From NCBI GenBank assembly GCA_023701005.1, contig JAMPXW010000002.1, forward strand, positions 45,347 through 109,346: DNA of 64,000 nucleotides, read 5' to 3'. How positions within the stretch are numbered: position 1 is the stretch's first letter; every line of letters begins with the position of its first letter. The notes under the pieces were generated by a model that did no database searches, had not been told where the DNA came from, and worked only from the letters and a program-made list of their open reading frames with translations. The stretch is from Burkholderiales bacterium (GTDB taxonomy: Bacteria > Patescibacteriota > Minisyncoccia > Phycocordibacterales > UBA9973). Both the position numbers and the translations under genes were made by a program. Shown here piece after piece: positions 30,892 through 58,597 of the stretch.

Positions 30892-31779
30892 ATGATTGAT
30901 AGAATAATAAATACAAAAAATACAAAAGATGCAGAGGTAGTAATATTGAATGCTCCTTATGAGCACAGTGTTTCTTTTGGAGGTGGGACAATAAAAGGTC
31001 CACAAAAAATAATAGAATGCTTAGATAATTATCTAGAACTTTTTGATACTGAATTAAAATGTGAACCAGCTAAAAAAATTAAAACTGCAAAAAAAGAAAT
31101 AACTGGTTTAAAAAATATAAATGGAGAAAAAGCTTCAAAAAAAATAAGCACCGAATATCAAAAATTGTTTAACGATGACAAATTTATAATTATGCTCGGA
31201 GGAGAACATACAGTTTCCTACGGAGCATTAGAAGCTATATCTAAAAAAGAAAATCCTAAAGATATTACAATATTACAAATAGACGCTCACCAAGATTTAA
31301 GAAATGATAGTGGAGATTATAGCGAAAAAAAAGATAAATTTGCTCATTCTTGTGTCATGCGCAGAGCTCATGAACTAGGCTTCCCTATTGTTCAAGTAGG
31401 AATAAGAACATATTCCAAATACGAATACGAATATTGGCAAAATAATAAACAAACTATTACAGTTTTTGGTTGGAATGGAAAAGAAATACCTATAAATAAA
31501 ATTTTAGAATCAATTAAAACTAAAAAGGTTTATCTTACTTTAGATGTTGATGGCTTTGATCCTGCTTTTATGCCAGGCACAGGGACACCAGTGCAAGGTG
31601 GATTAGATTGGTATTATGGATTAAATTTAATAAATAAAATTGTAGATACTAAAAATTTGATTGGCGCAGATATTGTAGAAGTATCACCTCAAAAAGAATC
31701 AGCTCTAACAGAATTTGGAGCAGCTCTTATTTGTTATAAAATAATGGCTCACAAATTTAAAAATAAACTTATCTCTTAA
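30892..31779 (+). CDS. Arginase/agmatinase-family ureohydrolase
   Basis: 'GGEHTVSYGA', 'LQIDAHQDLR' and 'LDVDGFDPAFMPGTGTPVQGGL' are the Mn-binding ureohydrolase motifs. Confidence 0.8.
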   Translation: MIDRIINTKNTKDAEVVILNAPYEHSVSFGGGTIKGPQKIIECLDNYLELFDTELKCEPAKKIKTAKKEITGLKNINGEKASKKISTEYQKLFNDDKFIIMLGGEHTVSYGALEAISKKENPKDITILQIDAHQDLRNDSGDYSEKKDKFAHSCVMRRAHELGFPIVQVGIRTYSKYEYEYWQNNKQTITVFGWNGKEIPINKILESIKTKKVYLTLDVDGFDPAFMPGTGTPVQGGLDWYYGLNLINKIVDTKNLIGADIVEVSPQKESALTEFGAALICYKIMAHKFKNKLIS

Positions 31780-32359
31780 AAATTTTTTTGTGTAAGATAG
31801 AAAAGCTAATAATTGTATTAATTAATACAAAATATATACCCAAAGAGTAAATAGAAAAACTCCATTCTTTTATTATAAACAATCCTAAAATATTATTTAT
31901 AATTGCAAAAGCATAAATATAGACAGATTCTGTCTCTGGGAATTTCCAAGATTTAACAATAGTTGGAATAGCTGCCAATCCATCACTTAAAATAACAAAC
32001 AAAATAGATATCTCTAAATTATGTGTAAATATATAAAGTATTAATGCTAAAAAAGAAACAACTCCACAAATTGAATCAAAAAAAGTTATTTTCCAATAAG
32101 CATTTTTTTTGAATAAAGAATATATAATAACCAAAAATGGCCCAAACCCCGCCATAAAAACAGGCAGAACAGAAAGCCCTGCTCCTGCTTTTAGTTGGAA
32201 AAATACTCCAAGAAAAGGAGCCAACATCCAAATGAACCAAGAAACTAAATTTGGTTTTGTATGTCCTAAAAACATACTTCTTAAATAAAAGAATTCTCCT
32301 ATCAAATTAATCAAAACACCTATATAAATTATATTTTCTGACAACATAAATTTAATCAT
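31769..32359 (-). CDS. Polytopic membrane protein (196 aa, 'HTKP' motif), terminal gene of module 2
   Basis: About 6 TM helices. 'LGHTKPNLVSWFIWMLAPFLG' resembles 'LTHTKPRLGWMLFILAHLG' in the 46397..46945 protein. Confidence 0.5.
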   Translation of the reverse strand: MIKFMLSENIIYIGVLINLIGEFFYLRSMFLGHTKPNLVSWFIWMLAPFLGVFFQLKAGAGLSVLPVFMAGFGPFLVIIYSLFKKNAYWKITFFDSICGVVSFLALILYIFTHNLEISILFVILSDGLAAIPTIVKSWKFPETESVYIYAFAIINNILGLFIIKEWSFSIYSLGIYFVLINTIISFSILHKKIFKR

Positions 32360-32392
32360 CCCTGTGCATAACTAGAAAAGGTCGGACCTTTT

Positions 32393-34108
32393 CTAATACA
32401 CCTCCCCATTATAACATTTCTCACAATACACAATTTCAGGTCGATCAGGAGAATAAGAAGTTTCAAATTCATTAGTGCAGTTTTCTTTCATACATTTCCT
32501 ATGCCAGAGCTTAAGAGGGTTTCTTTGGGATAGTCTATTGTAATGTCTACAGTTAGGACATAAGTGTGGAATGGGTAGATTCATTCTTTTGTAGAATTGA
32601 AGTTCATTTGGAATGATTTTGAAGGCTTCAGTACATTGGTGGTTACATTCTTTATGTTCACATTCTATTACTTTGTTTAATATACTGTCATCTACATCTT
32701 TTATATCATTTGGTATATCTTCTGTTTTAATGTCTATATTGTAGTTTCTTTCTTCTTTGTCTTTCCACTTATATCCTTCCTTTATGGCTTCTTCTTTTGT
32801 TAATGGGAAGTATTCTTGAGCTATGGTTTCATTGTAGGCAAAGGGACTTAATTCTGGTGGGAAGAATTCTCCGTATCTGTATATTCTTCCTTTACTATCT
32901 ATATATGGCATATCATTCATGTGTTGTATTATCTTTGGTATTAGTTCTTCATATTCTTCTTTTGTGTATTGTTTGTTGAGGATGCAGTATTGTTTGTTGC
33001 GGAGAGCGACACAGCCGAAGAGATCATGAGAAGAAATAGAAAGAAACGAATATTTTATATCGTGAGAAGCACGATTTGTCATACCAAACAAAGATCCAGA
33101 TCCTTTAAAAGATGGAGCTACCCCTTCATAAGATGACTCTGTTTGAACTCCACCAAACATGTCCATCGTATCTTTGTTGCCTGCTGAACGAATCACATAT
33201 TTTACATCTTGAGAATTATTAACATTAAAAGAAAAAAGAGCATTCTTTGAATTCTCTATATTATTACCTGAATAATTTACACTATTTAAGGTTTGTATAT
33301 ATTTATGTAGAGTATTTTCTTTTTTTATTTTATTAAATTCTTTCAATAACGTACTTAACGATCTGAAATCACCTATTATAAAATTAGATTTCTTTTCTTC
33401 GTATTCTCCTTTAGAATATTGGACATTACGAATCATGTATTTTTTATTTCTTAAATTTGAAGATAAAAAACAATCTTGGCAATTTGAACAATCAAACAAA
33501 AAAGCTGAATCAATACAACCATTACAATTTTCAAGAAATATACTATTATAATTATTTACTGAATCAGTGTTCTCGTAACACCAAATTAATTTATTACAAA
33601 ATAAGGAATCTAAAACATTTTGACTTTTATCTAAAGCATAAGAATAATCAACATTTTCACAATCCAAAATAGAAGAAGAAAGATAACAATTTTTATCATC
33701 TGTAGAGAAATTAATATAATCAGAATTAATATTATTAAATTTCCAAAGTTGTATTAGTGGAACTTTTTTTACTAAACTTATCCATTGTTCAAAGAAAGGC
33801 TTGTTCCAATCATATTCTAAAAAATAATCTTGGGCATTCCAATCATCTCCCCACCAACATTTATCACAATAAATCTTTGCCTCAAAATCTTGACGATACA
33901 TTGATATAATACCCTTACCACATAAAGCACATTTATTTTTATGAAAGACTCTTTCATTTCTAAAGGTCATTCTCCTTATCATTCTACATTCCGGACAAAA
34001 AGTAGGTGGAGGGACTTTTATTTTCTCATAAAATTTAAAATCTTCAGGCTCTATGGTAAAGTCGCATTTACAATTCTGGCATATTCTTTTTTCATTTTTA
34101 TATTCCAT
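32393..34108 (-). CDS. Cys-rich zinc-ribbon paralog family protein, copy B (571 aa)
   Basis: 'CQNCKCDFTIEPEDFKFYEKIKVPPPTFCPECR' ... 'LRNKQYCILNKQYTKEEYEEL' ... 'LWHRKCMKENCTNEFETSYSPDRPEIVYCEKCYNGEVY'. Confidence 0.85.
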   Translation of the reverse strand: MEYKNEKRICQNCKCDFTIEPEDFKFYEKIKVPPPTFCPECRMIRRMTFRNERVFHKNKCALCGKGIISMYRQDFEAKIYCDKCWWGDDWNAQDYFLEYDWNKPFFEQWISLVKKVPLIQLWKFNNINSDYINFSTDDKNCYLSSSILDCENVDYSYALDKSQNVLDSLFCNKLIWCYENTDSVNNYNSIFLENCNGCIDSAFLFDCSNCQDCFLSSNLRNKKYMIRNVQYSKGEYEEKKSNFIIGDFRSLSTLLKEFNKIKKENTLHKYIQTLNSVNYSGNNIENSKNALFSFNVNNSQDVKYVIRSAGNKDTMDMFGGVQTESSYEGVAPSFKGSGSLFGMTNRASHDIKYSFLSISSHDLFGCVALRNKQYCILNKQYTKEEYEELIPKIIQHMNDMPYIDSKGRIYRYGEFFPPELSPFAYNETIAQEYFPLTKEEAIKEGYKWKDKEERNYNIDIKTEDIPNDIKDVDDSILNKVIECEHKECNHQCTEAFKIIPNELQFYKRMNLPIPHLCPNCRHYNRLSQRNPLKLWHRKCMKENCTNEFETSYSPDRPEIVYCEKCYNGEVY

Positions 34109-34148
34109 ATTTAATATTTACATATGTACACCATGGTTGATATGTGTA

Positions 34149-35867
34149 CTAATACACCTCCTGCTGATAACATTTCTCACAATATATTATTTCTAACCTT
34201 TCTGGAGAATAAGTTGTCTCAAATTCATTATTACATCCATTCTTCATACACTTGCGATGCCAAAGTTTTAATGGATTTCTTAAATTAATACGTTTATAAT
34301 GTCTACAGTTAGGACAAAGTCTAGGGAGAGGTAGATTCATCCTTTTGTAAAATTTTAACTCTTCTGAAACAATCTTAAAAGCTTCTGTGCATTGATCTTT
34401 GCATTTTCCGCCATGCTCACATGCTATAACTTTATTTAATATATCTTCTGAAATATTTTCTACATCGTTTGGTATATCTTCTGTTTTAATATTAATATCA
34501 TAATTTCTAATCTCAGATTCCTTCCAAATATACCCATGTTCTAAAATTTCTTCCTTACTCAAAGGAAAATATTCTTGAGCAATACTTTCATTATAAGCAA
34601 ATGGTGATGCTTCCTTAGGGAAAAATTCACCATACTTATAAACACATCCTTTATTATCAACAAAAGGAACTTCATTCATGTGTTTAATAATTTTAGGTAC
34701 TAATTTTTCATATTCTTCTTTTGTATACTGCCTATTTAAAATACAATATTCTTTCTTATATAAACCTTCACAACCAAAAATATTTAAACAATCATGGCAT
34801 TCTTCTGTATAACGTACGTTTTGATTCGAAAAATTTCTAACACCAAATGCACTATTTGATCCACCAAAACCATGAGCTATTTCATATAAAAATTCAGCAT
34901 TAAAACCCTGGAAAGATGTATCATAACTATCTTTTGTATTATTTCTACTAAAAAATAAATACTTTGAATTTTCAGCTTGTCTAGAACTAAAAGAATTATG
35001 TGTATTTCTAACTTCATACAAGTCATCTCCATCCGAATTAATAGATTTATAAATGTAAGCATATCTATGTGGAATACTAAGTTTTATTTTCTCGAGTTTA
35101 TTCAAAAACTCTTGATGTTTTTCAAAATTATCTAAACTACTTAATTTTATAAATTTTTCATATTCTTCTTTTGTTTTTTGCTCATTAAAAATACAATAAG
35201 ATTTATTAACAAGGCCTACACAACAAAAACAGTTAATACAATTTCTACAATCTATAAGATAACGACTTTCTACACAATCATTGCAATTACGACTAAAAAA
35301 TAAAAGATTTGATCTTGCACATTCAAAAAGTTCATAACTAAATTGAACTTTTTCAGAAAAAGCAACATCTAAAGAATCTTGTGAATCAAAAATTTGATTA
35401 CCAAAATAAACTCTTTCATTATTTATGCCACCAAACAAAAGATAGCACTCTTTCAAATCGAGCCCATAATTACAATACTCACTAGAAATAAAATTCGTTT
35501 GATAAAGATTAGATCTAGGAACTTTTAACTGCAAAGATTTAAATTGTTCAAAAAATGATTTAGAAAAATCATAATCTGTTCCATAATCTAATGGATTCCA
35601 CTTATCTGAAAGCCAACATTCTTTACAATAAACAATAAAAGGTTTTTCTTTGCTATATACGCTAAGTATATTTTTTTTACACAAAAAACACTCACGTCTA
35701 TAAAAAACACGATTATTCCTGAAAAGTAATCTCCTTTGGAATCTACATTCCGGACAAAATGTAGGTGGAGGGACTTTTATTTTCTCATAAAAATTAAAAT
35801 CTTCAGGCTCTATGGTAAAGTCACATTTACAATTCTGACAGTTTTTAATTTCTTGTTTATATTCCAT
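34149..35867 (-). CDS. Cys-rich zinc-ribbon paralog family protein, copy C (572 aa)
   Basis: Same N- and C-terminal modules as copies A and B. Internal 'CVGLVNKSYCIFNEQKTKEEYEK' and 'LYKKEYCILNRQYTKEEYEKL'. Confidence 0.85.
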   Translation of the reverse strand: MEYKQEIKNCQNCKCDFTIEPEDFNFYEKIKVPPPTFCPECRFQRRLLFRNNRVFYRRECFLCKKNILSVYSKEKPFIVYCKECWLSDKWNPLDYGTDYDFSKSFFEQFKSLQLKVPRSNLYQTNFISSEYCNYGLDLKECYLLFGGINNERVYFGNQIFDSQDSLDVAFSEKVQFSYELFECARSNLLFFSRNCNDCVESRYLIDCRNCINCFCCVGLVNKSYCIFNEQKTKEEYEKFIKLSSLDNFEKHQEFLNKLEKIKLSIPHRYAYIYKSINSDGDDLYEVRNTHNSFSSRQAENSKYLFFSRNNTKDSYDTSFQGFNAEFLYEIAHGFGGSNSAFGVRNFSNQNVRYTEECHDCLNIFGCEGLYKKEYCILNRQYTKEEYEKLVPKIIKHMNEVPFVDNKGCVYKYGEFFPKEASPFAYNESIAQEYFPLSKEEILEHGYIWKESEIRNYDINIKTEDIPNDVENISEDILNKVIACEHGGKCKDQCTEAFKIVSEELKFYKRMNLPLPRLCPNCRHYKRINLRNPLKLWHRKCMKNGCNNEFETTYSPERLEIIYCEKCYQQEVY

Positions 35868-35910: not shown

Positions 35911-36774
35911 TTATATCCCTTCCTTTTTAAGTTCTTCTAGAAGTTCTCGGGCTTTTTTGGAAATCTTAGTAGGTATCTTGATATTTATTTTTATATACAA
36001 ATCCCCCGTCTTGCCATTCTTAATAGCCTCGCCATACCCAGACATTTTTAAAGTTTGTCCATTCTGTATACCAGCTGGAACATTTATAGACACTTCTTCT
36101 TCCTGACGCAAGACTCCTTTGCCTTTACAATTTTCACATTTTTCTTTTGGAACAGAACCAGAACCTAAACATTCTTCGCAGATTCTTGTATTAGATATAT
36201 TTCCTAAAATCGTCCTTTTTATTTCGCGAATTTTTCCTTGACCATTACAATACCTACAAGTATCCATCTTTGTACCTGGCTTAGCGCCTGAATTATGACA
36301 AACAGAACAGCTCGAAGTCTTGGTGATTGCTAATTTCCTTGTCACACCTAAAACAGAATCAGACAAAGTTATTTGTATTTCTGTACTTATATCTCGTCCG
36401 CGTCTTTGTTTTACTCCACCACCTCCTCTGTTTCCTGTAAAAAAATCACTAAAAATATCATTCAAATTGCCAAAATCAAAATCACCTCCCTGGAATCCTC
36501 CAGAAAAACCACCAAAATCAAAACCTTCAAAGCCACCACGCCCTCCATAGCCCTGATTCATATTTTCAAAACCAGCCCCAAATTGATCATATTTTGCTCG
36601 TTTTCCGTCATCAGAAAGAACTTGGTAAGCTTCATTTACTTCTTTAAATTTCTTTTCATCCCCTTCTTTTTTGTCAGGATGATATTTATGAGCCAATTTA
36701 TAAAAGGCTTTTTTTATTTCGTCTTTAGATGCATTCTTAGCAACACCTAAAATGTCATAATAATCTTTATTCAT
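35911..36774 (-). CDS. dnaJ: Chaperone DnaJ, short form (287 aa; J-domain, G/F region, CxxCxGxG zinc fingers; lacks most of CTD-II and the dimerisation tail)
   Basis: '[33 protein letters not shown]'. G/F-rich '[21 protein letters not shown]'. Four CxxC(x)GxG motifs. The protein ends soon after 'GDLYIKINI'. Confidence 0.85.
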
Positions 36775-36790
36775 AAGGTTTATATAGCCA

Positions 36791-38260
36791 TTATATCATA
36801 GGTTCCGCTTCTTGAGAAGTTGTATTTTTTGAGCTTTCTTCTGCTAAAGATCCTTTACCTTTTCCTTCAATGATTGCTTTTTCTTCCGCGCTTCTTATGA
36901 TAGTAGCTTCTTCTTCTGCAATAAGTTTCTGAGCATCATCTTTTGAAATAGAATATTTCCTACGAGAAGCTTCTATTATTTCTTTGCGATAAGAAGGATG
37001 TGTAGGGGGCAAAACTCTTAATGTTTCAGCAGAAAATGGATCATAAGATTCACCATCAATCGTCATTTTAATATAAAATTCAGCTACAGCTAAATTAATC
37101 ATATCTTTAACTCCGAAAAGTGGTTCAAATTCTGGTTTTAATTTTACTGCATCTTCTCCACCAACTCTAAAACAAATTATACTTCCCGTGTTTCCAAGCA
37201 CAGCATGTTGAACTTGGGGTAATAATTGTCCTATATATTGATGAGCAATGGTTAAGTTCAGTGCATATTTTCTAGCCTCTGACAAAATGTTTTCAAAAGT
37301 ATGTGTGACTATGTTTTGAAACTCATCTATGTATAAATAAAAATCTCTACGATCTTTTTCTGGTATTGCTGCTCTTTCCATTCCAGCTTGTTTTATTTTT
37401 GTTAAGAACATTGAACCAAAGAAACTTGAATTTTCTTCTCCAATGCGTCCTTTTGAAAGATTAATAAAAATAATTTTACCTTCATTCATTAATTTACTAA
37501 TATCAATTTTATTTTGCTTTTGTCCAAATATATTTCGTAGAAGTGGATCAGACAAAAACTGTCCCAATTTGTTAACAAGAGGAATGATAGCATCTGTATC
37601 GAACTTTTCAGACCAATCAGCAAATTCGATAGCGAAGAATCTTTTAACCATGTCGTCAGTAATATATTCGACTACTTTCTGTCTATAATTTCTATCAGTC
37701 AACATCGATATCATTCCACGCATTGTGGCATGAGGATAATCCAAAAGTGCCAAACAAGTAAAACGAAAAACGTGTTCAAGGCGTGGTGTCCAGTTTGCCC
37801 CGAATTGTTTTTGCAAAACCTCAATCAAGCCTTGGGTCAATTGAAATTTGAAAAGCGGATCGACGTTGGCAAGAGGGTTGAAAGAAGCTGGAAAATCTAC
37901 ATCTCCAGGGTCAATAACACAAACATCTTCTATTCTCTCTTTTGGAATATAATCCAGCATCGCGTCGATAACATCTCCGTGTGGATCAATAAGACAAAGG
38001 CCATGATTGTATGTGACGTCTTGGCGAATAAACAATTCCATTAATTTAGTTTTACCAACACCAGACTTACCAACAATATACAAATGTCTTCTTCTATCTA
38101 TTCTTTTTAGACCAAAAATAAATTTCTTTTCTTCAAGTGAAGCTACATAATTTGTACGCCCGATGAAAGAAACCTCTTCGGGATCTACTTTTCCAAAAAC
38201 AGGAAGTTCTGGTGGAGGTGGCCCATATTTTATTATTTGCACTCGATTTGGCTTCGGCAT
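36791..38260 (-). CDS. VirD4/TraD/HerA-like P-loop ATPase (coupling-protein-like, no TM anchor), copy 1 (489 aa)
   Basis: Walker A '[14 protein letters not shown]'. 'LIDPHGD'. Walker B '[10 protein letters not shown]'. 'LNLTIAHQY'. Paralogous to the 42501..44579 protein. Confidence 0.8.
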
Positions 38261-38323: not shown

Positions 38324-39040
38324 ATGAAAATACATAGATTTATAGATAAATTTGATTTTTCAAAAAATAAAATAGAAATAACAAACCCTGAAATAATCAA
38401 CCAAATAAAGCTTGTTTTAAGGCTAAAAAAGGGAGAAATTATAATTTTATCTGACGGTAAAGGTAAAAGTATAGAAGTAACCCTAGATACAATAAATCCA
38501 AATAAAATTATATGTATTCCAAACAAAGGAAACTCTACTGTAAAGAATGATACTGAAAATAAAAAAGTAAATTTATATTTAGCTATATTGAAAAAAGAAA
38601 ATTTTGAATTATCTGTACAGAAAGCAGTAGAAGTCGGTGTATCAAAAATAATACCTGTAATAACAGAAAGAACTATTAAAACGGGTTTAAATGTAATTCG
38701 TTTAGAAAAAATAATCAAAGAAGCTAGTGAACAATGCGGAAGAGATATATTACCTACACTATCTAATATCTCTAAATTTGAAGACGCCCTAAAAGATGGA
38801 GAAAATTCTGAAGAGAAAATTATTTTTCATATAGACAAAAATATTAATAACAATTTCTATACTCCAAATAAAAAAGCAAAAACTTCAAGCATTTTTATAG
38901 GACCAGAAGGTGGTTTTACGGAGAATGAAATAAAACTAGCTAAAAATTTAAATTATAAAATCAGTTCTCTTGGCTCTCTAACCTTGCGTGGAGAAACAGC
39001 CGCCATAGTAGCTACTTATCGTGCAGTCGAAGGAATTTAA
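38324..39040 (+). CDS. rsmE: 16S rRNA (uracil1498-N3)-methyltransferase RsmE
   Basis: C-terminal SPOUT block 'FIGPEGGFTENEIKLAKNLNYKISSLGSLTLRGETAAIVA'. Confidence 0.8.
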   Translation: MKIHRFIDKFDFSKNKIEITNPEIINQIKLVLRLKKGEIIILSDGKGKSIEVTLDTINPNKIICIPNKGNSTVKNDTENKKVNLYLAILKKENFELSVQKAVEVGVSKIIPVITERTIKTGLNVIRLEKIIKEASEQCGRDILPTLSNISKFEDALKDGENSEEKIIFHIDKNINNNFYTPNKKAKTSSIFIGPEGGFTENEIKLAKNLNYKISSLGSLTLRGETAAIVATYRAVEGI

Positions 39041-46945: not shown

Positions 46946-47025
46946 ATTTTATTTTAGAAACAATGAACTTTACTTTTTTATAATACTATTTAATTTAAAT
47001 TAAGTCAATATCTTAAATAATTAAC

Positions 47026-47057
47026 AAAAAGACGGAAGCAAGGCTTCCGTCTTTTTG
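47026..47057 (-). terminator. Rho-independent terminator of dnaK
   Basis: 'aaaaaGACGGAAGCaaggCTTCCGTCtttttg'. On the minus strand the stem is followed by a T-run immediately downstream of the dnaK stop. Confidence 0.6.
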
Positions 47058-47092
47058 TCTTCACCTACAAAATAAGTCTAAGGAGGCTATGT

Positions 47093-48985: not shown

Positions 48986-49055
48986 ATATTTTATTTAAAT
49001 TAAGCTTATAATGTTTTTGTTAATTATATCTATATTATATATAGATTTTATCTTT

Positions 49056-49089
49056 TTGCAAGTATTTTGTGGTCACGAAATACTTGCAA
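49056..49089. promoter_or_regulatory. Perfect 12-bp inverted repeat TTGCAAGTATTT-N10-AAATACTTGCAA in the divergent dnaK / PaaX-like intergenic region (candidate operator)
   Basis: Read directly from the sequence. It lies about 70 bp upstream of the dnaK start and about 30 bp upstream of the + strand regulator gene. It is not a CIRCE, HAIR or CtsR consensus. Confidence 0.4.
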
Positions 49090-49117
49090 AATACAGTATA
49101 TAGTATAATATATAAGT

Positions 49118-49630
49118 ATGTCAAGCAAACAAGAATATTCCAATAAAATACTTAAAATATTAGCTGAAAAACCAGCTGTACCTTTAGAGGCAATAAAGGA
49201 AAATAAGGATTCAAAGACAGGATATGCCCTTAATCGTTCAATAAAAAATCTTATAGAGTCTGGCTGTATCGAAATATTAAAATCAGATAATAGAGATTAT
49301 CTCAAATTAACAAAAAAAGGTAAAAATAAATTGAATTCTTTAAAACTTGAGGCCGATGGAGTACTAGTCTCTACTCATTGGGATGGATTATGGAGAATAA
49401 TTATTCTAGATATCCCAGAACAAAGAAAAAGTGAGCGAGAGGCTTTGAGATACCTACTAAAAAAAGCAAATTTCGTTTGTGTAAAAAACACTGTATGGAT
49501 ATCCCCTTTCCCTTATGAAAATCTTTTCACTAATATTAAAAAAGATTTAAACTTAGGCACAGAATTAATGATAATCGTCACAAATAAATTAGACGAAGAA
49601 ACAGCAAAAGCATTTAAATCAAGTTTTTAA
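49118..49630 (+). CDS. PaaX-like winged-helix transcriptional regulator (170 aa)
   Basis: 'HWDGLWRIIILDIPEQRKSEREALRYLLKKANFVCVKNTVWISPFP' fits the PaaX C-domain pattern WdGxW..V...iPE..R..R..LR..L...gF..l...vWisP. The N-terminus is wHTH-like. Confidence 0.55.
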   Translation: MSSKQEYSNKILKILAEKPAVPLEAIKENKDSKTGYALNRSIKNLIESGCIEILKSDNRDYLKLTKKGKNKLNSLKLEADGVLVSTHWDGLWRIIILDIPEQRKSEREALRYLLKKANFVCVKNTVWISPFPYENLFTNIKKDLNLGTELMIIVTNKLDEETAKAFKSSF

Positions 49631-51455: not shown

Positions 51456-51492
51456 CCACTTTTCCCGGGCACCTGGTGTCCGGGAAAAGTGG
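51456..51492. other. GC-rich near-perfect 18-bp hairpin (CCACTTTTCCCGGGCACC-t-GGTGTCCGGGAAAAGTGG) between paralog copy G and the ABC exporter gene
   Basis: Seen in the sequence, with one mismatch. There is no flanking T-run on either strand, so it is not a canonical intrinsic terminator. Confidence 0.4.
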
Positions 51493-51532: not shown

Positions 51533-53275
51533 TTAATAAACTTCTTGTTGATAACAACGTTCACAATAGACTATTTCTTTTCTCTCGGGGGCATAAGAAG
51601 TCTCAAATTCATTATCACATCCCTCTTTCATGCATTTTCTTTTATATAATTTGATTCCATTTCGCATTTTTATGCGTTCGAAATGCCTACAATTAGGACA
51701 AAGTCTAGGAATTGGTATATTCATTCTTTTATAAAAAGAAAGTTCTGTCTCAGTTATTTTAAAAGCTTCTGTACAAGAACCATCACAATTCGATTCAAAA
51801 TGATTATTTTTACTATGATGTAAGCATTCAATGACCTTTCCTATTATACTAGAATCAATGCTTAAAATATCATCAGCTATATCTTCCTGTTTTATATCTA
51901 TTAAATAATTTCTTTTTTCTTCTTCTCTCCATTTATAACCCTTTTCTAAAATCTCACCTTTCATTAAAGGAAAATAATCCTGAGCCAAAGATTCATTGTA
52001 ACAAAAAGGAGACAAGTCAGATGGTAAAAACTCACCATATTTATAAATTACTCCTCTCTTATCTACATACGGAAGATCATTCATATGCTGTTTTATTTTT
52101 GGCAATAATTCTTCATATGCTTCTTTTGTATATTGTTTATTTAAAATACAATATTGTTTATTTCTAAGTCCAGAACAACCAAAAATGTTTGTACATCCAG
52201 TACAACTAAATGAATATTCACAATTTTGACAACCTTTGCTGCAACGATAGTTAAATTTATTATTAAAACAATCAGAACCTACAGAAGAACATTCATAACA
52301 TAATTCAGAATTCTCCCCCCATAAAGTACAATCATAACAATCTTTAAAATTTCGTGTAAAAAAAACTTGTATATATTTACTATCTTCTCCCCCAATTACA
52401 TAATAACTTTGATGAACATTTTTAGAATTATTTATGTATTCACCAGAAACATTATTATTATATCGACCTTCTAAAAATTTTCTTATATTTTTATTTAAAA
52501 TAATATCAGTCTTCCGCTTTGTTTTTTCTAATGCTTCATAAGAACCTAAATTGAAATCCCTAATAAATTTTTCATACTCTCCCTTAGAATATTGTTTATT
52601 AAAAACAAAATACTGCTTATTTCTTAAATTAGTACAACCAAAACAAGAATTACAACCAATTAAATCTCTGGAAAACCACACATCCATGCAGTTTTCACAG
52701 TGAGAAGAAAATAAAGTTCTATAACATTTAGTAAGGGCAAAGGATTGATAACATAATTCAGATGATTCAATTCTAGTTACATCTATTGAATTTTTTGTTC
52801 TATTAATTTCAGCACTATACATTGAATCTTCTGAAATCGCTGCAACAAACACTAAATAACAATTTTTTAAATCATGAGCCCCACTACAATAATCGCTGTT
52901 AACCATATCCCAAGAAGTTTGGCTAGGAATAGGAACATCTAAAAATAATTCTTTTAATTGGATAAAAAAATTTTTATTAAAGTCATATTCTCTACCATAA
53001 TCCAAGCTATTTAATTCATCAGACCACCAAATATCTCTCTCCCAAACTTTAAAGGGTGATTCTTGTGGAACGATAGAAAAAATAGTTTTTCCTGTTTTAT
53101 CACTTATTCTCTTATATAAAACACGATAATCACGAAAAGCCATTCTCCTAATCATCCTACACTCCGGGCAAAATGTAGGTGGAGGAACCTTTATTTTTTC
53201 ATAAAATTTAAAATCTTCTTGCTCGATTATGAAGTCTTTTTTACAATTCTGACATTGTCGGGTTTCGTTTTTCAT
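51533..53275 (-). CDS. Cys-rich zinc-ribbon paralog family protein, copy G (580 aa)
   Basis: 'CQNCKKDFIIEQEDFKFYEKIKVPPPTFCPECR' ... 'CTNLRNKQYFVFNKQYSKGEYEK' ... 'CSGLRNKQYCILNKQYTKEAYEEL' ... 'EIVYCERCYQQEVY'. Confidence 0.85.
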   Translation of the reverse strand: MKNETRQCQNCKKDFIIEQEDFKFYEKIKVPPPTFCPECRMIRRMAFRDYRVLYKRISDKTGKTIFSIVPQESPFKVWERDIWWSDELNSLDYGREYDFNKNFFIQLKELFLDVPIPSQTSWDMVNSDYCSGAHDLKNCYLVFVAAISEDSMYSAEINRTKNSIDVTRIESSELCYQSFALTKCYRTLFSSHCENCMDVWFSRDLIGCNSCFGCTNLRNKQYFVFNKQYSKGEYEKFIRDFNLGSYEALEKTKRKTDIILNKNIRKFLEGRYNNNVSGEYINNSKNVHQSYYVIGGEDSKYIQVFFTRNFKDCYDCTLWGENSELCYECSSVGSDCFNNKFNYRCSKGCQNCEYSFSCTGCTNIFGCSGLRNKQYCILNKQYTKEAYEELLPKIKQHMNDLPYVDKRGVIYKYGEFLPSDLSPFCYNESLAQDYFPLMKGEILEKGYKWREEEKRNYLIDIKQEDIADDILSIDSSIIGKVIECLHHSKNNHFESNCDGSCTEAFKITETELSFYKRMNIPIPRLCPNCRHFERIKMRNGIKLYKRKCMKEGCDNEFETSYAPERKEIVYCERCYQQEVY

Positions 53276-53276: not shown

Positions 53277-54974
53277 TTAATAAACTTCTTGCTGATAACA
53301 CTTCTCGCAATAAACTATCTCAGGGCGTTCGGGGGCATAAGAAGTCTCAAATTCGTTATCACATCCCTCTTTCATGCATTTCCTATGCCAAAGCTTCATT
53401 GGGTTTTTAAGACTAAGCCTCATTTTATATCTTTCATCTTGATGAATTCTAGGTAATGGAATATCCATACGACGATAAAATTCTAATTCAAAAGGAGTAA
53501 TTTTAAAAGCTTTTTTTGTTATCAAACATTCTATAACTTCATTTAGAATAGAATGATCTACATCTTTTATATCATCTGGAATTTCTTCAGCTTTTTTTGT
53601 TATCACATATTTATTGTCGATCTTCTCTTTATATGAATATCCATTTTTTAATATTTCTTCTTTTGTAAGCAAAAAATGATCATTTGCAACTGTTTCATTA
53701 TATCCAAATGGAGAAAACTCAAAAGGAAAAAATTCACCATATTTATAAATATTACCAATACTATCTATGTAAGGCATCTCATCCATTTGTTTTTTTATTT
53801 TTCCTACTAATTCAAAGTATTCTTCCTTTGTATATTCTTTATTTAAAATACAATATTCTTTATTTCTTAAACCAACACAACCGAAAATATAACTAGAAGA
53901 TCCACAATAATCACTATATTCAACATGGCTTAAAGCTGGATAACCAGTAGTTATAAATTTTAAATTTTGACTATTTGTTGCACCACCAGAACTAAACTCA
54001 TAGACCAATTCTCCACTTAAATGACAAGTATCCATTACATCTTTTGAATTAACATCCCTATATGTATATTTTGAATTTTCAGTACCATAAGAATTAAAAA
54101 TGAAATTAGAAGATTTACAATTTCTTATATCATCCCCTTTTGAATTTATACAATTTGTTGTTCTAGCATATTTTCTTGGAAATTTTAATGAAAAATCCCA
54201 AAATTTATCAAAATTTTCTTTAAAAAATTTATAACTTCCAATATTTAAATTTTTTATTTTTTCAAAATATTCGTCTTTATCATATTCTTTATTCCAAATA
54301 CAATATTTTTTATTTCGTAAATTTACACAACCAAAACAATTCTGACAATTGACACAATCTAAAACGAAATTGGAATCAATACACGAAGAAGACCAATAAC
54401 AATATTTACAATTATAATTTTTTGTACATCCAATATTTTGATATATTAATTCACTTTCAGTTATATTATAAGAATCTACTACTAATTTTGAATTATCGAT
54501 ATTGCTTGAATAATAAACATTTTCTGAGCCAAATATAACAGAATATGAGAGATAAGCATTTTTTGCACCATCAACAAAATTAGCATATTCTACATTCAAA
54601 CAATTGCCAACTTGCCTAATAGCTGGACGAGGCACCTTATTAAACAATTCTCTCCATTGCACAAAAAAAGATTTTTTAAAATCATATTCTTGACTATATT
54701 TTAATGAATCCCAATCATCACTTTTCCAACATTCTGCACAATATACTGGGAAAACAACATTGGCATCATATACTGCAATTATTTTCTTATTACATAGGTC
54801 ACAACTGCGTTTATATAGAGAGCGCTCATTTCTCCAAATTAATCTACGAACAAGTCGACACTCCGGGCAAAATGTAGGTGGAGGAACCTTTATTTTTTCA
54901 TAAAATTTAAAATCTTCTTGCTCTATCTGAAAGTCTTTTTTACAATTCTGACATTGTCTTATCTCATTTTTCAT
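53277..54974 (-). CDS. Cys-rich zinc-ribbon paralog family protein, copy H (565 aa)
   Basis: 'CQNCKKDFQIEQEDFKFYEKIKVPPPTFCPECR' ... 'CVNLRNKKYCIWNKEYDKDEY' ... 'CVGLRNKEYCILNKEYTKEEYFEL' ... 'LWHRKCMKEGCDNEFETSYAPERPEIVYCEKCYQQEVY'. It lies 1 nt from copy G. Confidence 0.85.
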   Translation of the reverse strand: MKNEIRQCQNCKKDFQIEQEDFKFYEKIKVPPPTFCPECRLVRRLIWRNERSLYKRSCDLCNKKIIAVYDANVVFPVYCAECWKSDDWDSLKYSQEYDFKKSFFVQWRELFNKVPRPAIRQVGNCLNVEYANFVDGAKNAYLSYSVIFGSENVYYSSNIDNSKLVVDSYNITESELIYQNIGCTKNYNCKYCYWSSSCIDSNFVLDCVNCQNCFGCVNLRNKKYCIWNKEYDKDEYFEKIKNLNIGSYKFFKENFDKFWDFSLKFPRKYARTTNCINSKGDDIRNCKSSNFIFNSYGTENSKYTYRDVNSKDVMDTCHLSGELVYEFSSGGATNSQNLKFITTGYPALSHVEYSDYCGSSSYIFGCVGLRNKEYCILNKEYTKEEYFELVGKIKKQMDEMPYIDSIGNIYKYGEFFPFEFSPFGYNETVANDHFLLTKEEILKNGYSYKEKIDNKYVITKKAEEIPDDIKDVDHSILNEVIECLITKKAFKITPFELEFYRRMDIPLPRIHQDERYKMRLSLKNPMKLWHRKCMKEGCDNEFETSYAPERPEIVYCEKCYQQEVY

Positions 54975-55087: not shown

Positions 55088-56869
55088 TTATATAAATTCT
55101 GCTTGATAACATTTTTCACAATATACTATTTCTTTTCTCTCGTCACTTATCGCTGTTTTAAATTCATTCTGACATGGGTTATCTCCATGGTCATGTTTTA
55201 TTGTATTTTTATATTCTTTATTACTTGATTCTACACCATTACACATACATTTTCTATACCAAAGTTTGGGTGGATTCTTTATCTTTAAACGCTCTCCGTA
55301 ACGACAATTTGGGCACAATCTTGAAAGAGCTACTTTCATTTGTCGATGAAAAGATAACTCATTTGGTAAAATACGAAATGCATTTGTGCATTGTTGATTA
55401 CATTCTCCTTTATGTGCGCACTCAAAAACCTCATTTAATATATCATCAGACACAATATCTATATCATCTGGCATGTCTTCTGATTTTTTGGTTATTTTAT
55501 AATCTCTTTCTTTTTCATCATACCATTTAAAACCTTTCTTAATTGCTTCTTCTTTCGTCAATGGAAAATAATTTTGAGCCTGCGTCTCATTATAAGACCA
55601 AGAGGATAATTCATAAGGAAAAAATTCTCCGTATTTATATACTCTTCCTTTACTATCTATATATGGCATATCATTCATATGCTTTGTTATCTTAAAGACT
55701 AGCTCTTCATATTCTTCTTTTGTGTATTGTTTATTCAAAATACAATAAGATTTATTTCTTAATTTAGTACAACCAAAAAGATTATTACAAAAATAAACTC
55801 TATCGGAATAAATGATATCTGTTGATTCATTACAACCACGACTTAAAAAACATCTTTGCGAATGTTCAACCCCATTAACTTCATATAATAAATTCGAAAC
55901 GTCTCCTCCAAAAGTAACATCAATACTATCTTTTAAGAGCAAACCTCCTAAAAAAATAAATTTACAATCTTCTACTCCTCTTAAAACAGAAAAACAATTC
56001 TTACAATTCTTAGTATTTTGAATATCATCACCAGATATATTTACAGAATTTTTTATATAAGCAAATTTCCTTGGAATTTGATAATAAAATTTCCAAAACT
56101 CTTCTTTTGCTTTTTGTAAAATCTTGTAATTACCCAAGTTCCATCTTTCTATCTCTTTTTTATATTCTTCTTTTGTATATTGTTTGTTAAAAATACAATA
56201 TTTTTGATTTCTTAAGTTCACACAACCGAAACAGTTAGAACAACCTACACAATTAAAAAGAAAGGCTGAATCAATACATTCATCTGAAAAATAAATAAAT
56301 TTTGTATTATATCCAGAATTAGAATTCAAATTTTCGTATACATGATCTACATTTAAAACACCATCCGAATCTATTGAATCCTTAGAAAAAACAGGAACCT
56401 GGCAATTATAACAATTTATAGATTCATACCCATCAAAACAAAGTACACAATTTTTAGATCGTGTGTTCCCATTAGAATAGAAACAGTCAATAGACCCTTT
56501 TTGAAAAATCGACTGAAAAGGTACAACCTTTAATAAGTCTTTAAATTGTTCAAAAAATGACCTAGAGAAATCATAATCCCTGCCATAATCCGTAGCATCC
56601 CAAGAATCTTTCCACCAACAATCTGAACAATAAACTAAAAAAGAATTTTCCTTGTTATATATACTTATTATTTCTTTTTTACAACTATCACAATTTATTT
56701 TATACAGAGATCTATTCTCTCTATAACATAAACGTCTCACGAGTCTGCACTCTGGACACCAAGTTGGCGGAGGGACTTTTATTTTTTCATAAAATTTAAA
56801 ATCTTCTGGCTCGATTATGAAGTCTTGTTTACAATTTTGGCATATCTTGTTTTCACTTTTATATTCCAT
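55088..56869 (-). CDS. Cys-rich zinc-ribbon paralog family protein, copy I (593 aa)
   Basis: 'CQNCKQDFIIEPEDFKFYEKIKVPPPTWCPECR' ... 'CVNLRNQKYCIFNKQYTKEEYKKE' ... 'CTKLRNKSYCILNKQYTKEEYEEL'. There is a C-terminal insertion before 'EIVYCEKCYQAEFI'. Confidence 0.85.
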   Translation of the reverse strand: MEYKSENKICQNCKQDFIIEPEDFKFYEKIKVPPPTWCPECRLVRRLCYRENRSLYKINCDSCKKEIISIYNKENSFLVYCSDCWWKDSWDATDYGRDYDFSRSFFEQFKDLLKVVPFQSIFQKGSIDCFYSNGNTRSKNCVLCFDGYESINCYNCQVPVFSKDSIDSDGVLNVDHVYENLNSNSGYNTKFIYFSDECIDSAFLFNCVGCSNCFGCVNLRNQKYCIFNKQYTKEEYKKEIERWNLGNYKILQKAKEEFWKFYYQIPRKFAYIKNSVNISGDDIQNTKNCKNCFSVLRGVEDCKFIFLGGLLLKDSIDVTFGGDVSNLLYEVNGVEHSQRCFLSRGCNESTDIIYSDRVYFCNNLFGCTKLRNKSYCILNKQYTKEEYEELVFKITKHMNDMPYIDSKGRVYKYGEFFPYELSSWSYNETQAQNYFPLTKEEAIKKGFKWYDEKERDYKITKKSEDMPDDIDIVSDDILNEVFECAHKGECNQQCTNAFRILPNELSFHRQMKVALSRLCPNCRYGERLKIKNPPKLWYRKCMCNGVESSNKEYKNTIKHDHGDNPCQNEFKTAISDERKEIVYCEKCYQAEFI

Positions 56870-56914
56870 AATTTTTTCTTAACACTTTTGGACGACCGTC
56901 TGAACCTGATAACA

Positions 56915-58597
56915 TCAATTTATGTTTTGTTTATAACATTCTTCACAAGCAATTTTCTTGTAATTCCACTCTGGTAAATAATAAGCCTTTCTATCTTTTT
57001 TACAATAACAACAAACATAATCATATGATTGAAGTACCGTTAGAGTCTTCAGGCTTTCTTTGATTCGTACATCAAAATGATATCTAGGAAGTGGGATTCC
57101 ATTTTCTCTGTAAAAAGAAAGTTCATTTCTGGCAATATTAAAACGCCAACCAGTCAAAGGACATATTAAAGCTTGGGTAATAATAGTATCGGGAACATCT
57201 TTTATATCATCAGGTAATTTGTCTGTGCTCATTCCTTCGATATTGCTTTCATTTATATCTTCCCAATAACCACCAAATTTTAAAATATCTTCTTTTTTAG
57301 TATCTGGAAAATATGTAAAACTAGTAGAAAAATTAAAAGGCCCAGCGCTCATAGAATATGGTAAAAATTTACCATACTCTCCTCTTTTTTTCATATCAGA
57401 AATTATTTTATTTTTTAGTTCTTCGTATTCAACTTTTCCATATTTTTTATTTAAAATACAATATTTTTTCTTTTTTAAACCCACACAACCAAAACAATAT
57501 TCACATTCAATACATAGATCTAAATATTCAGAGTATCTAGAAGACGACCAAGAAGAATATTTCAAAGCATAACCATTAACACAGCAACTACAGTTACCTA
57601 ATAATTCAGTATACCAACAACCATCTGCATCAATATCTGATTTATGTCTCATTCCTCTAATACAATTGAAACAATCTTCTGATTCACTGATCGTATTGCA
57701 ATTATGACAATTTTTACAATCTAAAAGATAATCACCGTCAGAATCATATATTTTAAGGTTAAAATTAAGCCTATGAACAACTTCATCTTCCATAATTTCC
57801 TCAAAACGTTTTTTAAAAGATTGAATGGCTTGATATGAACCTAAATTATAAGATTTTATTTTTTCTAGATATTCTTCCCTGCTATATTCTACATTTTCGA
57901 TACAATAAGATTTGCCTCTTAAATTCCAGCACATAAAACAATTTTGACAATTTCGACAGTCATAAAGAAAATAAGAATCGATACAATCACGAGAATGTTT
58001 TGAATAAAATAACTTATAAGAATGATGGCACTCTGCAGAGTCGTAACATTTTTCTGAATTATAACAAATAGCTACATCAATAGAATTTTTAACTTTCAAA
58101 TTCCTGTATGAATACATTAAATCTTCACATTCTTCCATTGATCGTGCTAAATAACAATTTTTAGAATTCCAAACATCATCACAATAATCGCAATTAGTGT
58201 TCTTTATACCATTCTGGTGTGGACGAGGAACTTTTTTTTGAAGTTTTTGTAATTGTTCAAAAAATGGTTTATTTTCATCATAATCTTGACCATAATTCAT
58301 AGCATCCCATTTATCGCTATACCATTCTGTAGATGTATAAATAGGGTAACGATTTTTCTCTGGTAATACTGTAATCAAATTCTCTCCAGATAAATCTGAC
58401 TTACCTTTGCGAAATTTTCCAAACATCCAAAAAGATAGATGTTGTTTTATACGACAAAAATTACAAATAGTTGGTAATTCTATATCAACTTTTTTATACA
58501 AAGAAAGTTCTCCATCCGTAATGGTAAATTCATTTTTGCAGTGCTCACATTCTCTATTTCTCTGTAATCGATTCTGATTCATTATATTCAAAAACAT
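56915..58597 (-). CDS. Cys-rich zinc-ribbon paralog family protein, copy J (560 aa), the most divergent member
   Basis: 'CEHCKNEFTITDGELSLYKKVDIELPTICNFCR' ... 'CWNLRGKSYCIENVEYSREEYLEK' ... 'CVGLKKKKYCILNKKYGKVEYEEL' ... C-terminal 'ACEECYKQNIN'. Its start overlaps the end of grpE. Confidence 0.8.
   Translation of the reverse strand: MFLNIMNQNRLQRNRECEHCKNEFTITDGELSLYKKVDIELPTICNFCRIKQHLSFWMFGKFRKGKSDLSGENLITVLPEKNRYPIYTSTEWYSDKWDAMNYGQDYDENKPFFEQLQKLQKKVPRPHQNGIKNTNCDYCDDVWNSKNCYLARSMEECEDLMYSYRNLKVKNSIDVAICYNSEKCYDSAECHHSYKLFYSKHSRDCIDSYFLYDCRNCQNCFMCWNLRGKSYCIENVEYSREEYLEKIKSYNLGSYQAIQSFKKRFEEIMEDEVVHRLNFNLKIYDSDGDYLLDCKNCHNCNTISESEDCFNCIRGMRHKSDIDADGCWYTELLGNCSCCVNGYALKYSSWSSSRYSEYLDLCIECEYCFGCVGLKKKKYCILNKKYGKVEYEELKNKIISDMKKRGEYGKFLPYSMSAGPFNFSTSFTYFPDTKKEDILKFGGYWEDINESNIEGMSTDKLPDDIKDVPDTIITQALICPLTGWRFNIARNELSFYRENGIPLPRYHFDVRIKESLKTLTVLQSYDYVCCYCKKDRKAYYLPEWNYKKIACEECYKQNIN

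Follow-up and report, generated by a model that had tools for sequence, protein, structure and literature searches.

Two kinds of ring ATPase machine are among the closest described parallels to the locus reported here: type IV coupling complexes, in which a hexameric type IV coupling protein (T4CP) works with adaptors, and HerA machines, in which the ATPase is paired with a specificity partner encoded nearby. In the Candidate Phyla Radiation (CPR; Patescibacteria), which holds a large share of bacterial diversity in tiny genomes whose lineage-specific genes are mostly unexplained, a survey counted 5,713 VirD4-type homologs in 2,918 genomes, or about two per genome; just 148 of them lay near virB4, and exaptation was raised as a possibility (bioRxiv 10.1101/2025.01.22.634366). 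The role of these orphan ATPases was left open by the survey. Here we describe a 64-kb stretch of contig JAMPXW010000002.1 ("the window") that encodes two such ATPases, A1 and A2, together with ten copies of a Cys-rich protein family, here called P (paralogs A to J). P and the ATPases form a real, widely conserved, and apparently undescribed CPR module that joins a new protein family to an exapted coupling-type ATPase, giving the orphan VirD4-type ATPases of CPR a conserved genetic partner.

An earlier note, made from the letters of this DNA, had drawn attention to the P genes, the ATPases, and two small membrane proteins (mem1 and mem2). All ten open reading frames (ORFs; 560-593 aa) were recovered on the minus strand exactly where that note had placed them, as were both ATPases and both membrane proteins. 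The tight spacing that it reported was also found (1 nt between H and G, 2 nt between E and D, and 3 nt between A2 and E). What the note did not contain is that the P/ATPase array is interleaved with genes for GrpE, DnaK, and DnaJ. The array begins on the minus strand with GrpE, followed by J, I, H, G, an ABC transporter, a PaaX-like regulator (+), DnaK, mem2, F, A2, E, D, RsmE (+), A1, DnaJ, C, B, and mem1 (Table 1). The ten P genes amount to 17 kb of the 64 kb (27% of the window), a genomic investment in one undescribed family.

Conservation of the P-ATPase neighborhood

Gene linkage was assessed in comparison loci (given L-numbers), with neighbors counted within 10 kb. The P-anchored sample held 79 loci, each from a different GTDB species, and the ATPase-anchored sample held 80 metagenome loci with 47 assessable ATPase genes. 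An ATPase gene lay near P in 29 of the 79 loci (37%), where we estimate that chance would give about 5%, assuming roughly two ATPase genes in a genome of less than 1 Mb. Conversely, P lay near 18 of the 47 ATPase genes. Among ATPases at least 65% identical to those of the window, 9 of 11 had a nearby P gene, as did 7 of the 33 below 50% identity. The earlier note had allowed that the synteny might be coincidental, and these counts argue that it is not.

Co-occurrence also extends to split-gene loci of the Saccharimonadia type. A small zf_Tbcl zinc-finger gene and one or more solenoid-only genes, corresponding to parts of P, flank an ATPase with an N-terminal DUF8128 domain in L104, L108, L165/L166 (a Saccharimonadales metagenome-assembled genome, MAG), L168, and L169. 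A full-length P gene directly precedes a long-type ATPase of 740-755 aa in L102, L103, and L105, with no chaperone gene nearby. As a separate observation, the split-module ATPase, solenoid, and zinc-finger genes of two loci (L108:4851-6451 and L169:10350-14267) are followed by a UvrD-type helicase gene; in L169, a PD-(D/E)XK nuclease domain is part of the helicase, RmuC comes next, and ClpB is encoded three genes upstream of the ATPase.

Among the P-anchored loci, DnaJ was a neighbor in 14, DnaK in 12, a PaaX-like regulator in 10, mem1 in 8, and GrpE in 5. The recurrent order is GrpE-P(n)-PaaX(-)-DnaK-A2-P(n)-[RsmE(-)]-A1-DnaJ-[P]-mem1 (e.g., L021, L028, L037, L051, L054, L059, and L075). DnaK and A2 are adjacent in at least 13 loci, and the divergent PaaX-DnaK pair occurs in 15. 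Several paralogs hold their positions across species: J immediately follows grpE, E follows A2, and C follows dnaJ. Because the cluster sits in the grpE-dnaK-dnaJ locus in many species, a second suggestion of the earlier note, that P might be chaperone-associated zinc factors, gains weight. The P-ATPase association is thus a conserved, non-obligatory neighborhood across CPR classes, whose embedding among chaperone genes is a feature of Paceibacteria; there, orphan coupling ATPases are placed physically in a heat-shock operon.

Architecture of the P proteins and the ATPases

With copy B as the reference for paralog identities, residue numbers, and structure modeling, the ten P ORFs align end to end at 34-52% identity with 61 invariant columns, in keeping with the single family that the earlier note had proposed. 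The motifs it listed are present: the N-terminal FYEKIKVPPPTFCPECR, the C-terminal CxxC modules, and '...FGC.NLRNK.YCI.NKQY.KEEY', which is repeated twice. Neither a signal peptide nor a transmembrane (TM) segment was found, as the maximum 19-residue Kyte-Doolittle window was at most 1.51 in every copy. Searches of Pfam, NCBIfam, PADLOC, and PDB sequences returned no family-level relative of full-length P. The matches obtained were weak, to PF13451 (zf_Tbcl) in 14 of 57 members (best E 0.002) and to PF23477 (zf_Tbcl_2) in 4 of 57.

Internally, P consists of a zinc-finger pair, two homologous Cys-ladder β-solenoids, a middle domain, and again a zinc-finger pair. Each pair comprises a zf_Tbcl finger followed by a CxxC-x17-CxxC-type treble-clef finger, whose spacing is exact at residues 60-84 of copy B. 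By hhalign, the first finger (residues 1-55) matches its C-terminal copy (476-540) with a probability of 98.7%, the second (50-115) matches its copy (532-571) with 91%, and solenoid 1 (116-245) matches solenoid 2 (246-400) with 99.9% (E 3.7e-33). In solenoid 1, the sequence autocorrelation follows a strict period of three, peaking at 12 and 36 residues, and the Cys-Cys spacings are multiples of three. Each solenoid is closed by an 'LRNKxYCIxNKQYxKEEY' cap, and the middle domain is conserved and aromatic-rich. The AlphaFold2 (AF2) model of copy B has a predicted local distance difference test (pLDDT) score of 82.5 and a predicted template modeling (pTM) score of 0.85.

Split homologs map onto the same parts. 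Zinc-finger proteins of ~100 aa align to P residues 2-87 (probability 98-99.8%), and the split homolog L104:6016-6333 exceeds the PF13451 cut-off (32.5 bits vs 24); solenoid-only proteins of ~310 aa map to residues 104-398. The CxxC-x17-CxxC domain binds zinc experimentally in small proteins of Methanosarcina (PMC12704099). Judged from their sequences, the P termini are treble-clef zinc fingers, with predicted zinc binding. Every P has 29-40 cysteines (5-7%), its pI lies between 6.0 and 7.0, and no histidine is invariant in the family. In individual paralogs (D, E, G, H, and J), several zinc sites have been lost from an otherwise conserved protein. Because of the zinc-finger termini, the Cys content, the near-neutral pI, and the absence of an invariant His, we regard P as cytoplasmic, metal-stabilized binding proteins that are presumably non-enzymatic.

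The family is large. An exhaustive hidden Markov model search of 1.84 billion representatives (clusters at 50% identity, E < 1e-30) gave 2,274 clusters, nearly all of 540-600 aa and matching end to end. A word-indexed search gave more than 7,600 matches, and among the matches listed all were annotated as hypothetical and all belonged to CPR. Solenoid-only relatives (~310 aa) occur in MAGs labeled Peregrinibacteria and Saccharimonadales, longer relatives of P length occur in MAGs labeled Gracilibacteria and Gribaldobacteria, and one partial match carries an actinobacterial MAG label. No P was found among 50,697 phage or 72,556 plasmid records, and IMG/VR yielded one marginal fragment. The family is apparently specific to Patescibacteria.

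The paralogs are ancient, because orthologs of C, E, H, I, A, B, and J in other species are 62-79% identical, whereas paralogs of one genome share 34-52%. Orthologs of J, for instance, are 75-79% identical in L008, L049, L059, and L075; GrpE immediately precedes those of the last three, as it does a 55%-identical ortholog in L053. Conservation is distributed unevenly along the protein. The outermost zinc fingers are 70% and 66% identical between paralogs and 73% and 67% between orthologs, and the solenoids are 35% identical between paralogs and 72% and 67% between orthologs. This pattern is as expected for a shared handle combined with paralog-specific, conserved recognition surfaces. P orthologs are as conserved as housekeeping proteins, which would be unusual for effectors.

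The ATPases are VirD4/TraD-like and anchorless, as the earlier note had concluded. A1 and A2 are 45%-identical paralogs that both exceed the Pfam cut-offs for TrwB_AAD_bind (41.2 bits, E 1.3e-10, for A2 and 22.6 bits for A1; cut-off 20.5), T4SS-DNA_transf, DUF87, and TraG-D_C. They contain an FtsK/HerA-type P-loop domain with Walker A, Walker B, and a conserved Arg/Gln motif, and the all-α insertion in the nucleotide-binding domain is matched by TrwB_AAD_bind and predicted by AF2, at low confidence, as a helical insertion at residues 129-245. The DPHGD/E, DEFQN, and LNLT(I/V)AHQY motifs were found as noted earlier; the reported Walker A sequence holds for GKSGVGKT, but its counterpart, GKSGTGKS, ends in S rather than T. 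Walker A starts at residues 64 and 42 in A1 and A2, and hydropathy maxima of 0.96 (A1) and 1.06 (A2) speak against an N-terminal TM anchor. NCBIfam equivalog thresholds were not reached (conju_CD1115, 48.5/49.4 bits vs 250; SXT_TraD, 45-48 vs 366), and PADLOC gave weak generic mad8/HerA matches only. Apart from A1 and A2, no family of type IV secretion systems (T4SSs) or relaxases was found among the window ORFs scanned against Pfam. The A1 fold was dropped as a discriminator between T4CP, VirB4, and HerA, its model (pLDDT 60.6) being too poor.

A2 differs from A1 by a C-terminal CxxC-x17-CxxC treble-clef finger at aa 449-481, recognized by PF23477 (zf_Tbcl_2; E 2.1e-10) and by NCBIfam TIGR04272 (42.9 bits vs a cut-off of 36), an architecture also present in distant CPR lineages. 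Within its low-complexity, Lys/Glu-rich tail, residues ~611-617 carry a short ISL(N/S)EL motif (ISLSEL in A2). The motif occurs in 15 of 43 zinc-finger-bearing homologs (including L125, L156, L008, L021, L083, and L145) and is retained in lineages whose ATPase domains are only ~50-60% identical, making it a candidate short linear interaction motif.

A1 is under at least as much constraint as DnaK. Its best 120 database clusters are 84-93% identical; in shared loci, identity is 84-93% for A1, 82-94% for DnaK, ~63% for DnaJ, and ~61% for RsmE. The 90%-identity cluster of A1 contains 49 sequences from other MAGs, and that of this genome's DnaK contains only itself. Because the constraint on A1 is at the level of Hsp70, we read it as the signature of a core cellular rather than an accessory function. 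Residues 1-47 of A1 are Pro-rich, nearly invariant over the homologs, and modeled with pLDDT < 45, which suggests a disordered peptide that may serve as a docking motif for a conserved partner.

Three ATPase architectures recur in CPR: the A1 type (~490-517 aa, no finger), the A2 type (finger, often ISLxEL), and a long type of 750-1,170 aa. The last carries a 340-480-aa N-terminal domain that corresponds to DUF8128 (precomputed Pfam) and is sometimes TM-anchored or encoded by a separate upstream gene. Examples are L142:8909-11611, L156:8594-10024, L104:2796-5102, and L165:3394-5712; the DUF8128 domains of L142 and L156 are 30% identical (E 2e-47), and long ATPases often form tandem paralogous pairs (L109, L113, and L147). 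The L142-type ATPase gene adjoins one for a sigma70-r4/HARE-HTH protein, as does SEML1_0293 of Southlakia. A DUF8128-type domain (as in L142 and L156) was considered as a membrane partner of A1 and A2 and set aside, having no homolog in the window. The comparison defines an ancestral plan of a DUF8128-ATPase with split partners. It shows that the ancestral ATPase carried the N-terminal DUF8128 domain, sometimes membrane-anchored, and that Paceibacteria lost this domain and duplicated the ATPase into A1 and A2. It likewise shows that P was fused and expanded into ancient paralogs in Paceibacteria and that the set became interleaved with grpE, dnaK, and dnaJ.

The chaperone locus and its surroundings

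Table 1. Coordinates of the P, ATPase, chaperone, and associated features in the window.
Feature	Coordinates	Strand	Remarks
P paralog A	11552..13270	-	isolated copy between mraY and scpB; full-length family alignment; 67%-identical ortholog in L068
mem1, polytopic membrane protein, no known family	31769..32359	-	recurrent neighbor downstream of dnaJ/P
P paralog B	32393..34108	-	family alignment; orthologs 66-75% identical
P paralog C	34149..35867	-	11 orthologs in other species, 65-79% identity; often directly after dnaJ
DnaJ, short form	35911..36774	-	Pfam DnaJ, DnaJ_CXXCXGXG, DnaJ_C; 16 nt downstream of A1
ATPase A1, soluble VirD4/TrwB-like P-loop, 489 aa, no zinc finger	36791..38260	-	
RsmE-type 16S rRNA methyltransferase	38324..39040	+	Pfam Methyltrans_RNA and PUA_4
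P paralog D	39037..40740	-	second N-terminal zinc site degenerate
P paralog E	40743..42497	-	3 nt downstream of A2; orthologs 62-72%, same place after A2 in L021, L051, L059
ATPase A2, soluble VirD4/TrwB-like, 692 aa	42501..44579	-	C-terminal zinc finger and Lys/Glu-rich tail
P paralog F	44613..46301	-	ORF and family alignment
mem2, PnuC-type nicotinamide-riboside/nicotinamide mononucleotide (NMN) transporter	46397..46945	-	Pfam NMN_transporter
17-bp stem-loop, terminator or attenuator	47023..47059	-	directly after dnaK stop codon
DnaK (Hsp70)	47093..48985	-	translation; NCBI name 'molecular chaperone DnaK'
Putative palindromic operator TTGCAAGTATTT-N10-AAATACTTGCAA	49056..49089		dnaK promoter region; single occurrence in window
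PaaX-like winged-helix regulator, divergent from dnaK	49118..49630	+	Pfam PaaX_M, E 1e-18
P paralog G	51533..53275	-	ORF and family alignment
P paralog H	53277..54974	-	first C-terminal zinc site lost; 68%-identical ortholog in L039
P paralog I	55088..56869	-	orthologs 66-67% identical in L062, L073
P paralog J, most divergent copy	56915..58597	-	overlaps grpE end by 44 nt; 34% identical to B
GrpE, Hsp70 nucleotide-exchange factor	58554..59165	-	homologs adjoin J-type P in other loci

The product of 58554..59165 we take to be GrpE, recognized from its translation. RsmE lies upstream of A1 here and in seven comparison loci (L037, L045, L051, L060, L080, L084, and L096), and its place beside dnaJ is probably ancestral bacterial gene order, presumably the same proximity as in the dnaK operon of B. 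subtilis. At 287 aa, the DnaJ of the window is short: the J domain, the Gly/Phe (G/F) region, and the zinc-finger domain are retained, and its C-terminal substrate-binding region is truncated (positions 2-78 of the 152 in the DnaJ_C profile are matched).

The region between dnaK and the divergently oriented PaaX-like gene (49034-49124) contains the best promoter-like site together with a perfect palindrome. The same palindromic element, CAAGTATTT...AAATACTTG, recurs downstream of a conserved TTGACA/TATACT promoter in L034, L053, L054, L075, and L084. The PaaX-like gene is a candidate regulator of the locus, and it likely forms, with the palindrome, a CIRCE/HrcA-like switch that uses a different regulator as a Paceibacteria-specific replacement. 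A heat-shock regulon for P and the ATPases could not be placed, the dnaK operator being single in the window. Elsewhere in the array, after paralog G and before the ABC-transporter gene, a perfectly palindromic and very stable hairpin (51456-51492; 17-bp stem with 10 G-C pairs) is unusual for a 30% G+C genome and could terminate transcription both ways.

The two membrane proteins had been put forward as parts of a machine and as sharing an HTKP block. The block is literally present in both, but it falls in different halves of the two proteins and is not backed by profile homology: hhalign gave a probability of 0.8% for the mem1 profile against mem2, and BLASTP gave an E of 4e-4 over 37 residues. 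The mem2 protein matches Pfam NMN_transporter (28.6 bits vs a cut-off of 27.3, profile positions 23-171 of 175), lacks a homolog in all 160 related loci, and is probably unrelated to the P/ATPase module. No Pfam or NCBIfam match was obtained for mem1, and no PADLOC match for mem1, mem2, or P; mem1 has 12 orthologs in related loci, always after DnaJ, and is thus a recurrent neighbor, which mem2 is not. Because mem2 is PnuC-type without a homolog in the 160 loci, and relatedness of the two proteins is not demonstrable, we rejected them as a paralogous pair or translocon.

Several features lie at the edges of the array. Between rpsI and grpE is a SoFic-type Fic/DOC gene (59230-60414, minus strand; PADLOC SoFic E 3.8e-96), with the 29-nt hairpin AAAATACCCCTTGAAAATAGGGGTATTTT on both sides of it (59182-59210 and 60396-60424), as if inserted as a cassette. 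An rpsD-rpoA-rplM-rpsI block precedes the array (60435-63766). The same block occurs on a 1.2-Mb contig of another lineage (L163:1-16927), directly followed by five P-like genes of 308-545 aa, and the placement beside the ribosomal cluster may be old.

The window as a whole has ~30% G+C and core housekeeping content of the CPR type, including a penicillin-binding protein, CtpA, GltX, aminoacyl-tRNA synthetases, DnaB, MurG/FtsW/MraY, ScpA/B, MetK, and the ribosomal-protein/rpoA block. Since this composition is CPR-like and all close relatives are Nomurabacteria/Paceibacteria, the deposited name "Burkholderiales bacterium" (locus tags NDI62_) is almost certainly a wrong taxonomic label; many related MAGs are named "uncultured Candidatus Saccharibacteria bacterium," a label that may be similarly generic. 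A mobile element or defense island was rejected because the neighbors are housekeeping genes, phage and plasmid homologs are lacking, and neither tRNA genes nor Rfam matches were found in the 64-kb window.

Possible functions and relation to known systems

We favor, tentatively, a reading in which a soluble ring resembling a coupling protein cooperates with Hsp70 and the P proteins serve as its diversified partners, either adaptors or clients. P would act as non-enzymatic binding partners of the ring ATPase. The zinc-finger termini would be a common docking handle for the A1/A2 ring, because they are equally conserved among paralogs and orthologs; the same finger type is found on the A2 tail. 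The solenoid faces, because they differ between paralogs and are conserved within ortholog groups, would give each paralog its own specificity, so that P would select or present different cargos or would itself be cargo. The ring would spend ATP to thread or remodel a polymer, most likely a polypeptide given the DnaK-DnaJ-GrpE context or presumed co-expression in Paceibacteria. By analogy, the assembly would be a counterpart of type IV coupling complexes that has left the membrane and become linked with Hsp70. A broader and more doubtful extension describes a lineage-specific cytoplasmic machine. It would combine a membrane-detached coupling ATPase, duplicated in Paceibacteria and conserved there even beyond Hsp70, with combinatorial P adaptors and DnaK-DnaJ-GrpE, and would act on particular proteins by unfolding, sorting, or delivering them, perhaps to supply a T4SS needed for episymbiosis. 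If true, the machine would represent a novel class of translocase, coupled to chaperones and drawing its specificity subunits from a new fold family.

A number of observations weigh against this proposal. P has no nearby ATPase in 50 of the 79 P-anchored loci, paralog A of the window is isolated, and in four further loci (L161, L163, L167, and L170) the 8 kb around P contain no ATPase. Distant ATPase homologs (<50% identity) have no nearby P in 26 of 33 cases. Apart from one ClpB neighbor in L169, the chaperone linkage is confined to Paceibacteria, and the proposed link of P, the ATPases, and Hsp70 rests on gene order. The strong hairpin after dnaK and the conserved operator, which precedes dnaK only and is unique in the window, make co-regulation of P and the ATPases with dnaK no more than a possibility. 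Confidence in the A1 model is low, and the polymer of the ring could instead be DNA, the usual substrate of FtsK, HerA, and VirD4 ATPases, as the zinc finger and Lys-rich tail of A2 might indicate. Moreover, a distant long-form homolog, SEML1_0293, is classed as non-essential (NE) in the Tn-seq data on co-cultured Southlakia epibionticum (PMC10633639). In the Southlakia annotation tables, it was the only match, with no zf_Tbcl or solenoid gene identifiable.

A secretion route, which we consider unlikely, would make A1 and A2 true T4CPs that hand P, kept unfolded by DnaK/DnaJ/GrpE, to a VirB4-type T4SS from another part of the genome, with P acting on the host as effectors or surface proteins. 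The ATPase profiles are indeed closest to T4CPs, with DotL, TrwB, and Cag-beta among the best structural matches, and homologs in other CPR lineages (L104 and L142) have a membrane anchor, pointing to a membrane-proximal ancestor. However, A1 and A2 are anchorless, the Pfam-scanned window ORFs include no other T4SS component, mem2 is a vitamin transporter, and mem1 belongs to no known family. In favor of this route, CPR genomes do encode a T4SS, and its coupling protein normally lies away from virB4 (bioRxiv 10.1101/2025.01.22.634366). Cys-ladder β-solenoids characterize extracellular proteins, antifreeze proteins and adhesins among them, whereas the four terminal modules of P are classical intracellular zinc fingers that resist unfolding. 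A multi-paralog family beside a coupling protein resembles an effector arsenal, but host-facing effectors usually evolve fast and modularly, and P orthologs are more conserved across genera than DnaJ or RsmE, with fixed length and architecture.

In a second, comparably doubtful account, the ring pumps DNA, as HerA, FtsK, TrwB, and CedD do, P guides or loads nucleic acid for uptake, segregation, or repair, and the proximity to dnaK is historical. The A2-type zinc finger with its long Lys-rich tail would suit such a role, yet P is near-neutral, and no recognized nucleic-acid-binding or nuclease domain was found in it by Pfam and NCBIfam. The UvrD-type helicases that follow the module in L108 and L169, the PD-(D/E)XK domain and RmuC of L169, and the position of paralog A next to ScpA/ScpB would also fit, although chaperones rather than DNA enzymes are the most consistent neighbors in Paceibacteria. 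Natural competence is reported for Saccharibacteria (PMC10187176). Ten conserved paralogs are nevertheless hard to reconcile with a DNA pump.

It is improbable that P proteins are zinc or Fe-S stores, or redox-sensing holdases that release metal under stress as Hsp33 does, with the ATPases as mere neighbors. The abundance of Cys, in strict CxxC and period-3 spacing, the position of P within a heat-shock locus, and experimental verification of the zinc-binding domain type in other proteins (PMC12704099) would fit such a role. The loss of zinc sites in five otherwise conserved paralogs does not, and solenoid surfaces conserved within ortholog groups suggest dedicated partners instead of bulk metal binding; nor would such a role account for the ATPase being linked to P away from dnaK. 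We regard as equally improbable that P merely expanded in a strongly expressed region whose gene order was inherited from a Paceibacteria ancestor rather than selected, since, even though the full GrpE...DnaJ order is found mostly in related Paceibacteria and many P copies are dispersed, the linkage exceeds our chance estimate, stop/start overlaps and 1-3 nt gaps are maintained, and the pairing survives changes of order and orientation, fused and split forms, and ATPases only 45-50% identical.

Whichever reading holds, a new protein family and fold combination is available for annotation, and the question of the orphan coupling proteins of CPR becomes directly testable. No published description of the P family, of any other Cys-rich or zinc-ribbon paralog family in Parcubacteria, of DUF8128, or of the dnaK-locus arrangement was found in the literature searched, whose coverage was incomplete, so that a prior description is possible.

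Among known systems, the T4CPs and their coupling complexes (TrwB/VirD4/TraD; DotL with DotM/DotN/IcmS-IcmW/LvgA) have in common with A1 and A2 the all-α insertion in the nucleotide-binding domain and a C-terminal tail that could carry partner-binding elements. Small-to-medium partner proteins are encoded beside the ATPase in these systems, as P is here, and DotN, an adaptor of Legionella, is a zinc protein. A1 and A2 differ in the lack of a membrane anchor, in a neighborhood free of T4SS, relaxase, and oriT genes, and in scores of 45-49 bits against NCBIfam equivalog cut-offs of 250-650. They are partnered by an unrelated zinc-finger/solenoid family and encoded in a chromosomal Hsp70 operon rather than a mobile element, and A1 is conserved at a housekeeping level. 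Because of the results on anchor, T4SS linkage, and curated scores, we do not file the P/ATPase module as a T4CP system. The HerA machines (HerA-NurA, the HerA-Sir2 and HerA-DUF4297 defense systems, DptH, and TdpA) follow a common logic of a ring ATPase with a neighboring specificity partner. P, in contrast, has no nuclease, Sir2, or other effector domain, and no HAS-barrel was detected by sequence; P also has no PADLOC match, is absent from phage and plasmid collections, and sits among housekeeping genes.

At the level of domains, the P termini and the A2 tail belong to the zf_Tbcl (PF13451) and zf_Tbcl_2/CxxC-x17-CxxC (PF23477, TIGR04272) types. PF13451 and PF23477 describe only ~40-residue fingers with no functional annotation, and both the double solenoid of P (300 residues) and its middle domain fall outside any family. 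For the modeled center of P, the best structural matches are Cys-ladder β-solenoids (antifreeze proteins 1M8N and 1EZG, curli CsgA 8C50, and left-handed β-helix acyltransferases), which have in common with P short coils, strict three-residue periodicity, and Cys/Ser/Asn ladders. These matches are either disulfide-bonded proteins from outside the cell or trimeric enzymes with hexapeptide repeats, whereas P is cytoplasmic and zinc-finger-capped, and it lacks the hexapeptide repeat signature and the catalytic His/zinc site of left-handed β-helix acyltransferases and γ-carbonic anhydrases. Finally, P resembles Hsp70 co-chaperones in being encoded inside the grpE-dnaK-dnaJ locus, with paralog J overlapping grpE in several species. 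It differs from them in that Pfam and NCBIfam found no J domain with an HPD motif and no GrpE/BAG-type domain in any P, nor is an Hsp110-like domain present. J-proteins diversify the client choice of Hsp70, and by analogy the multi-paralog P family could do likewise.

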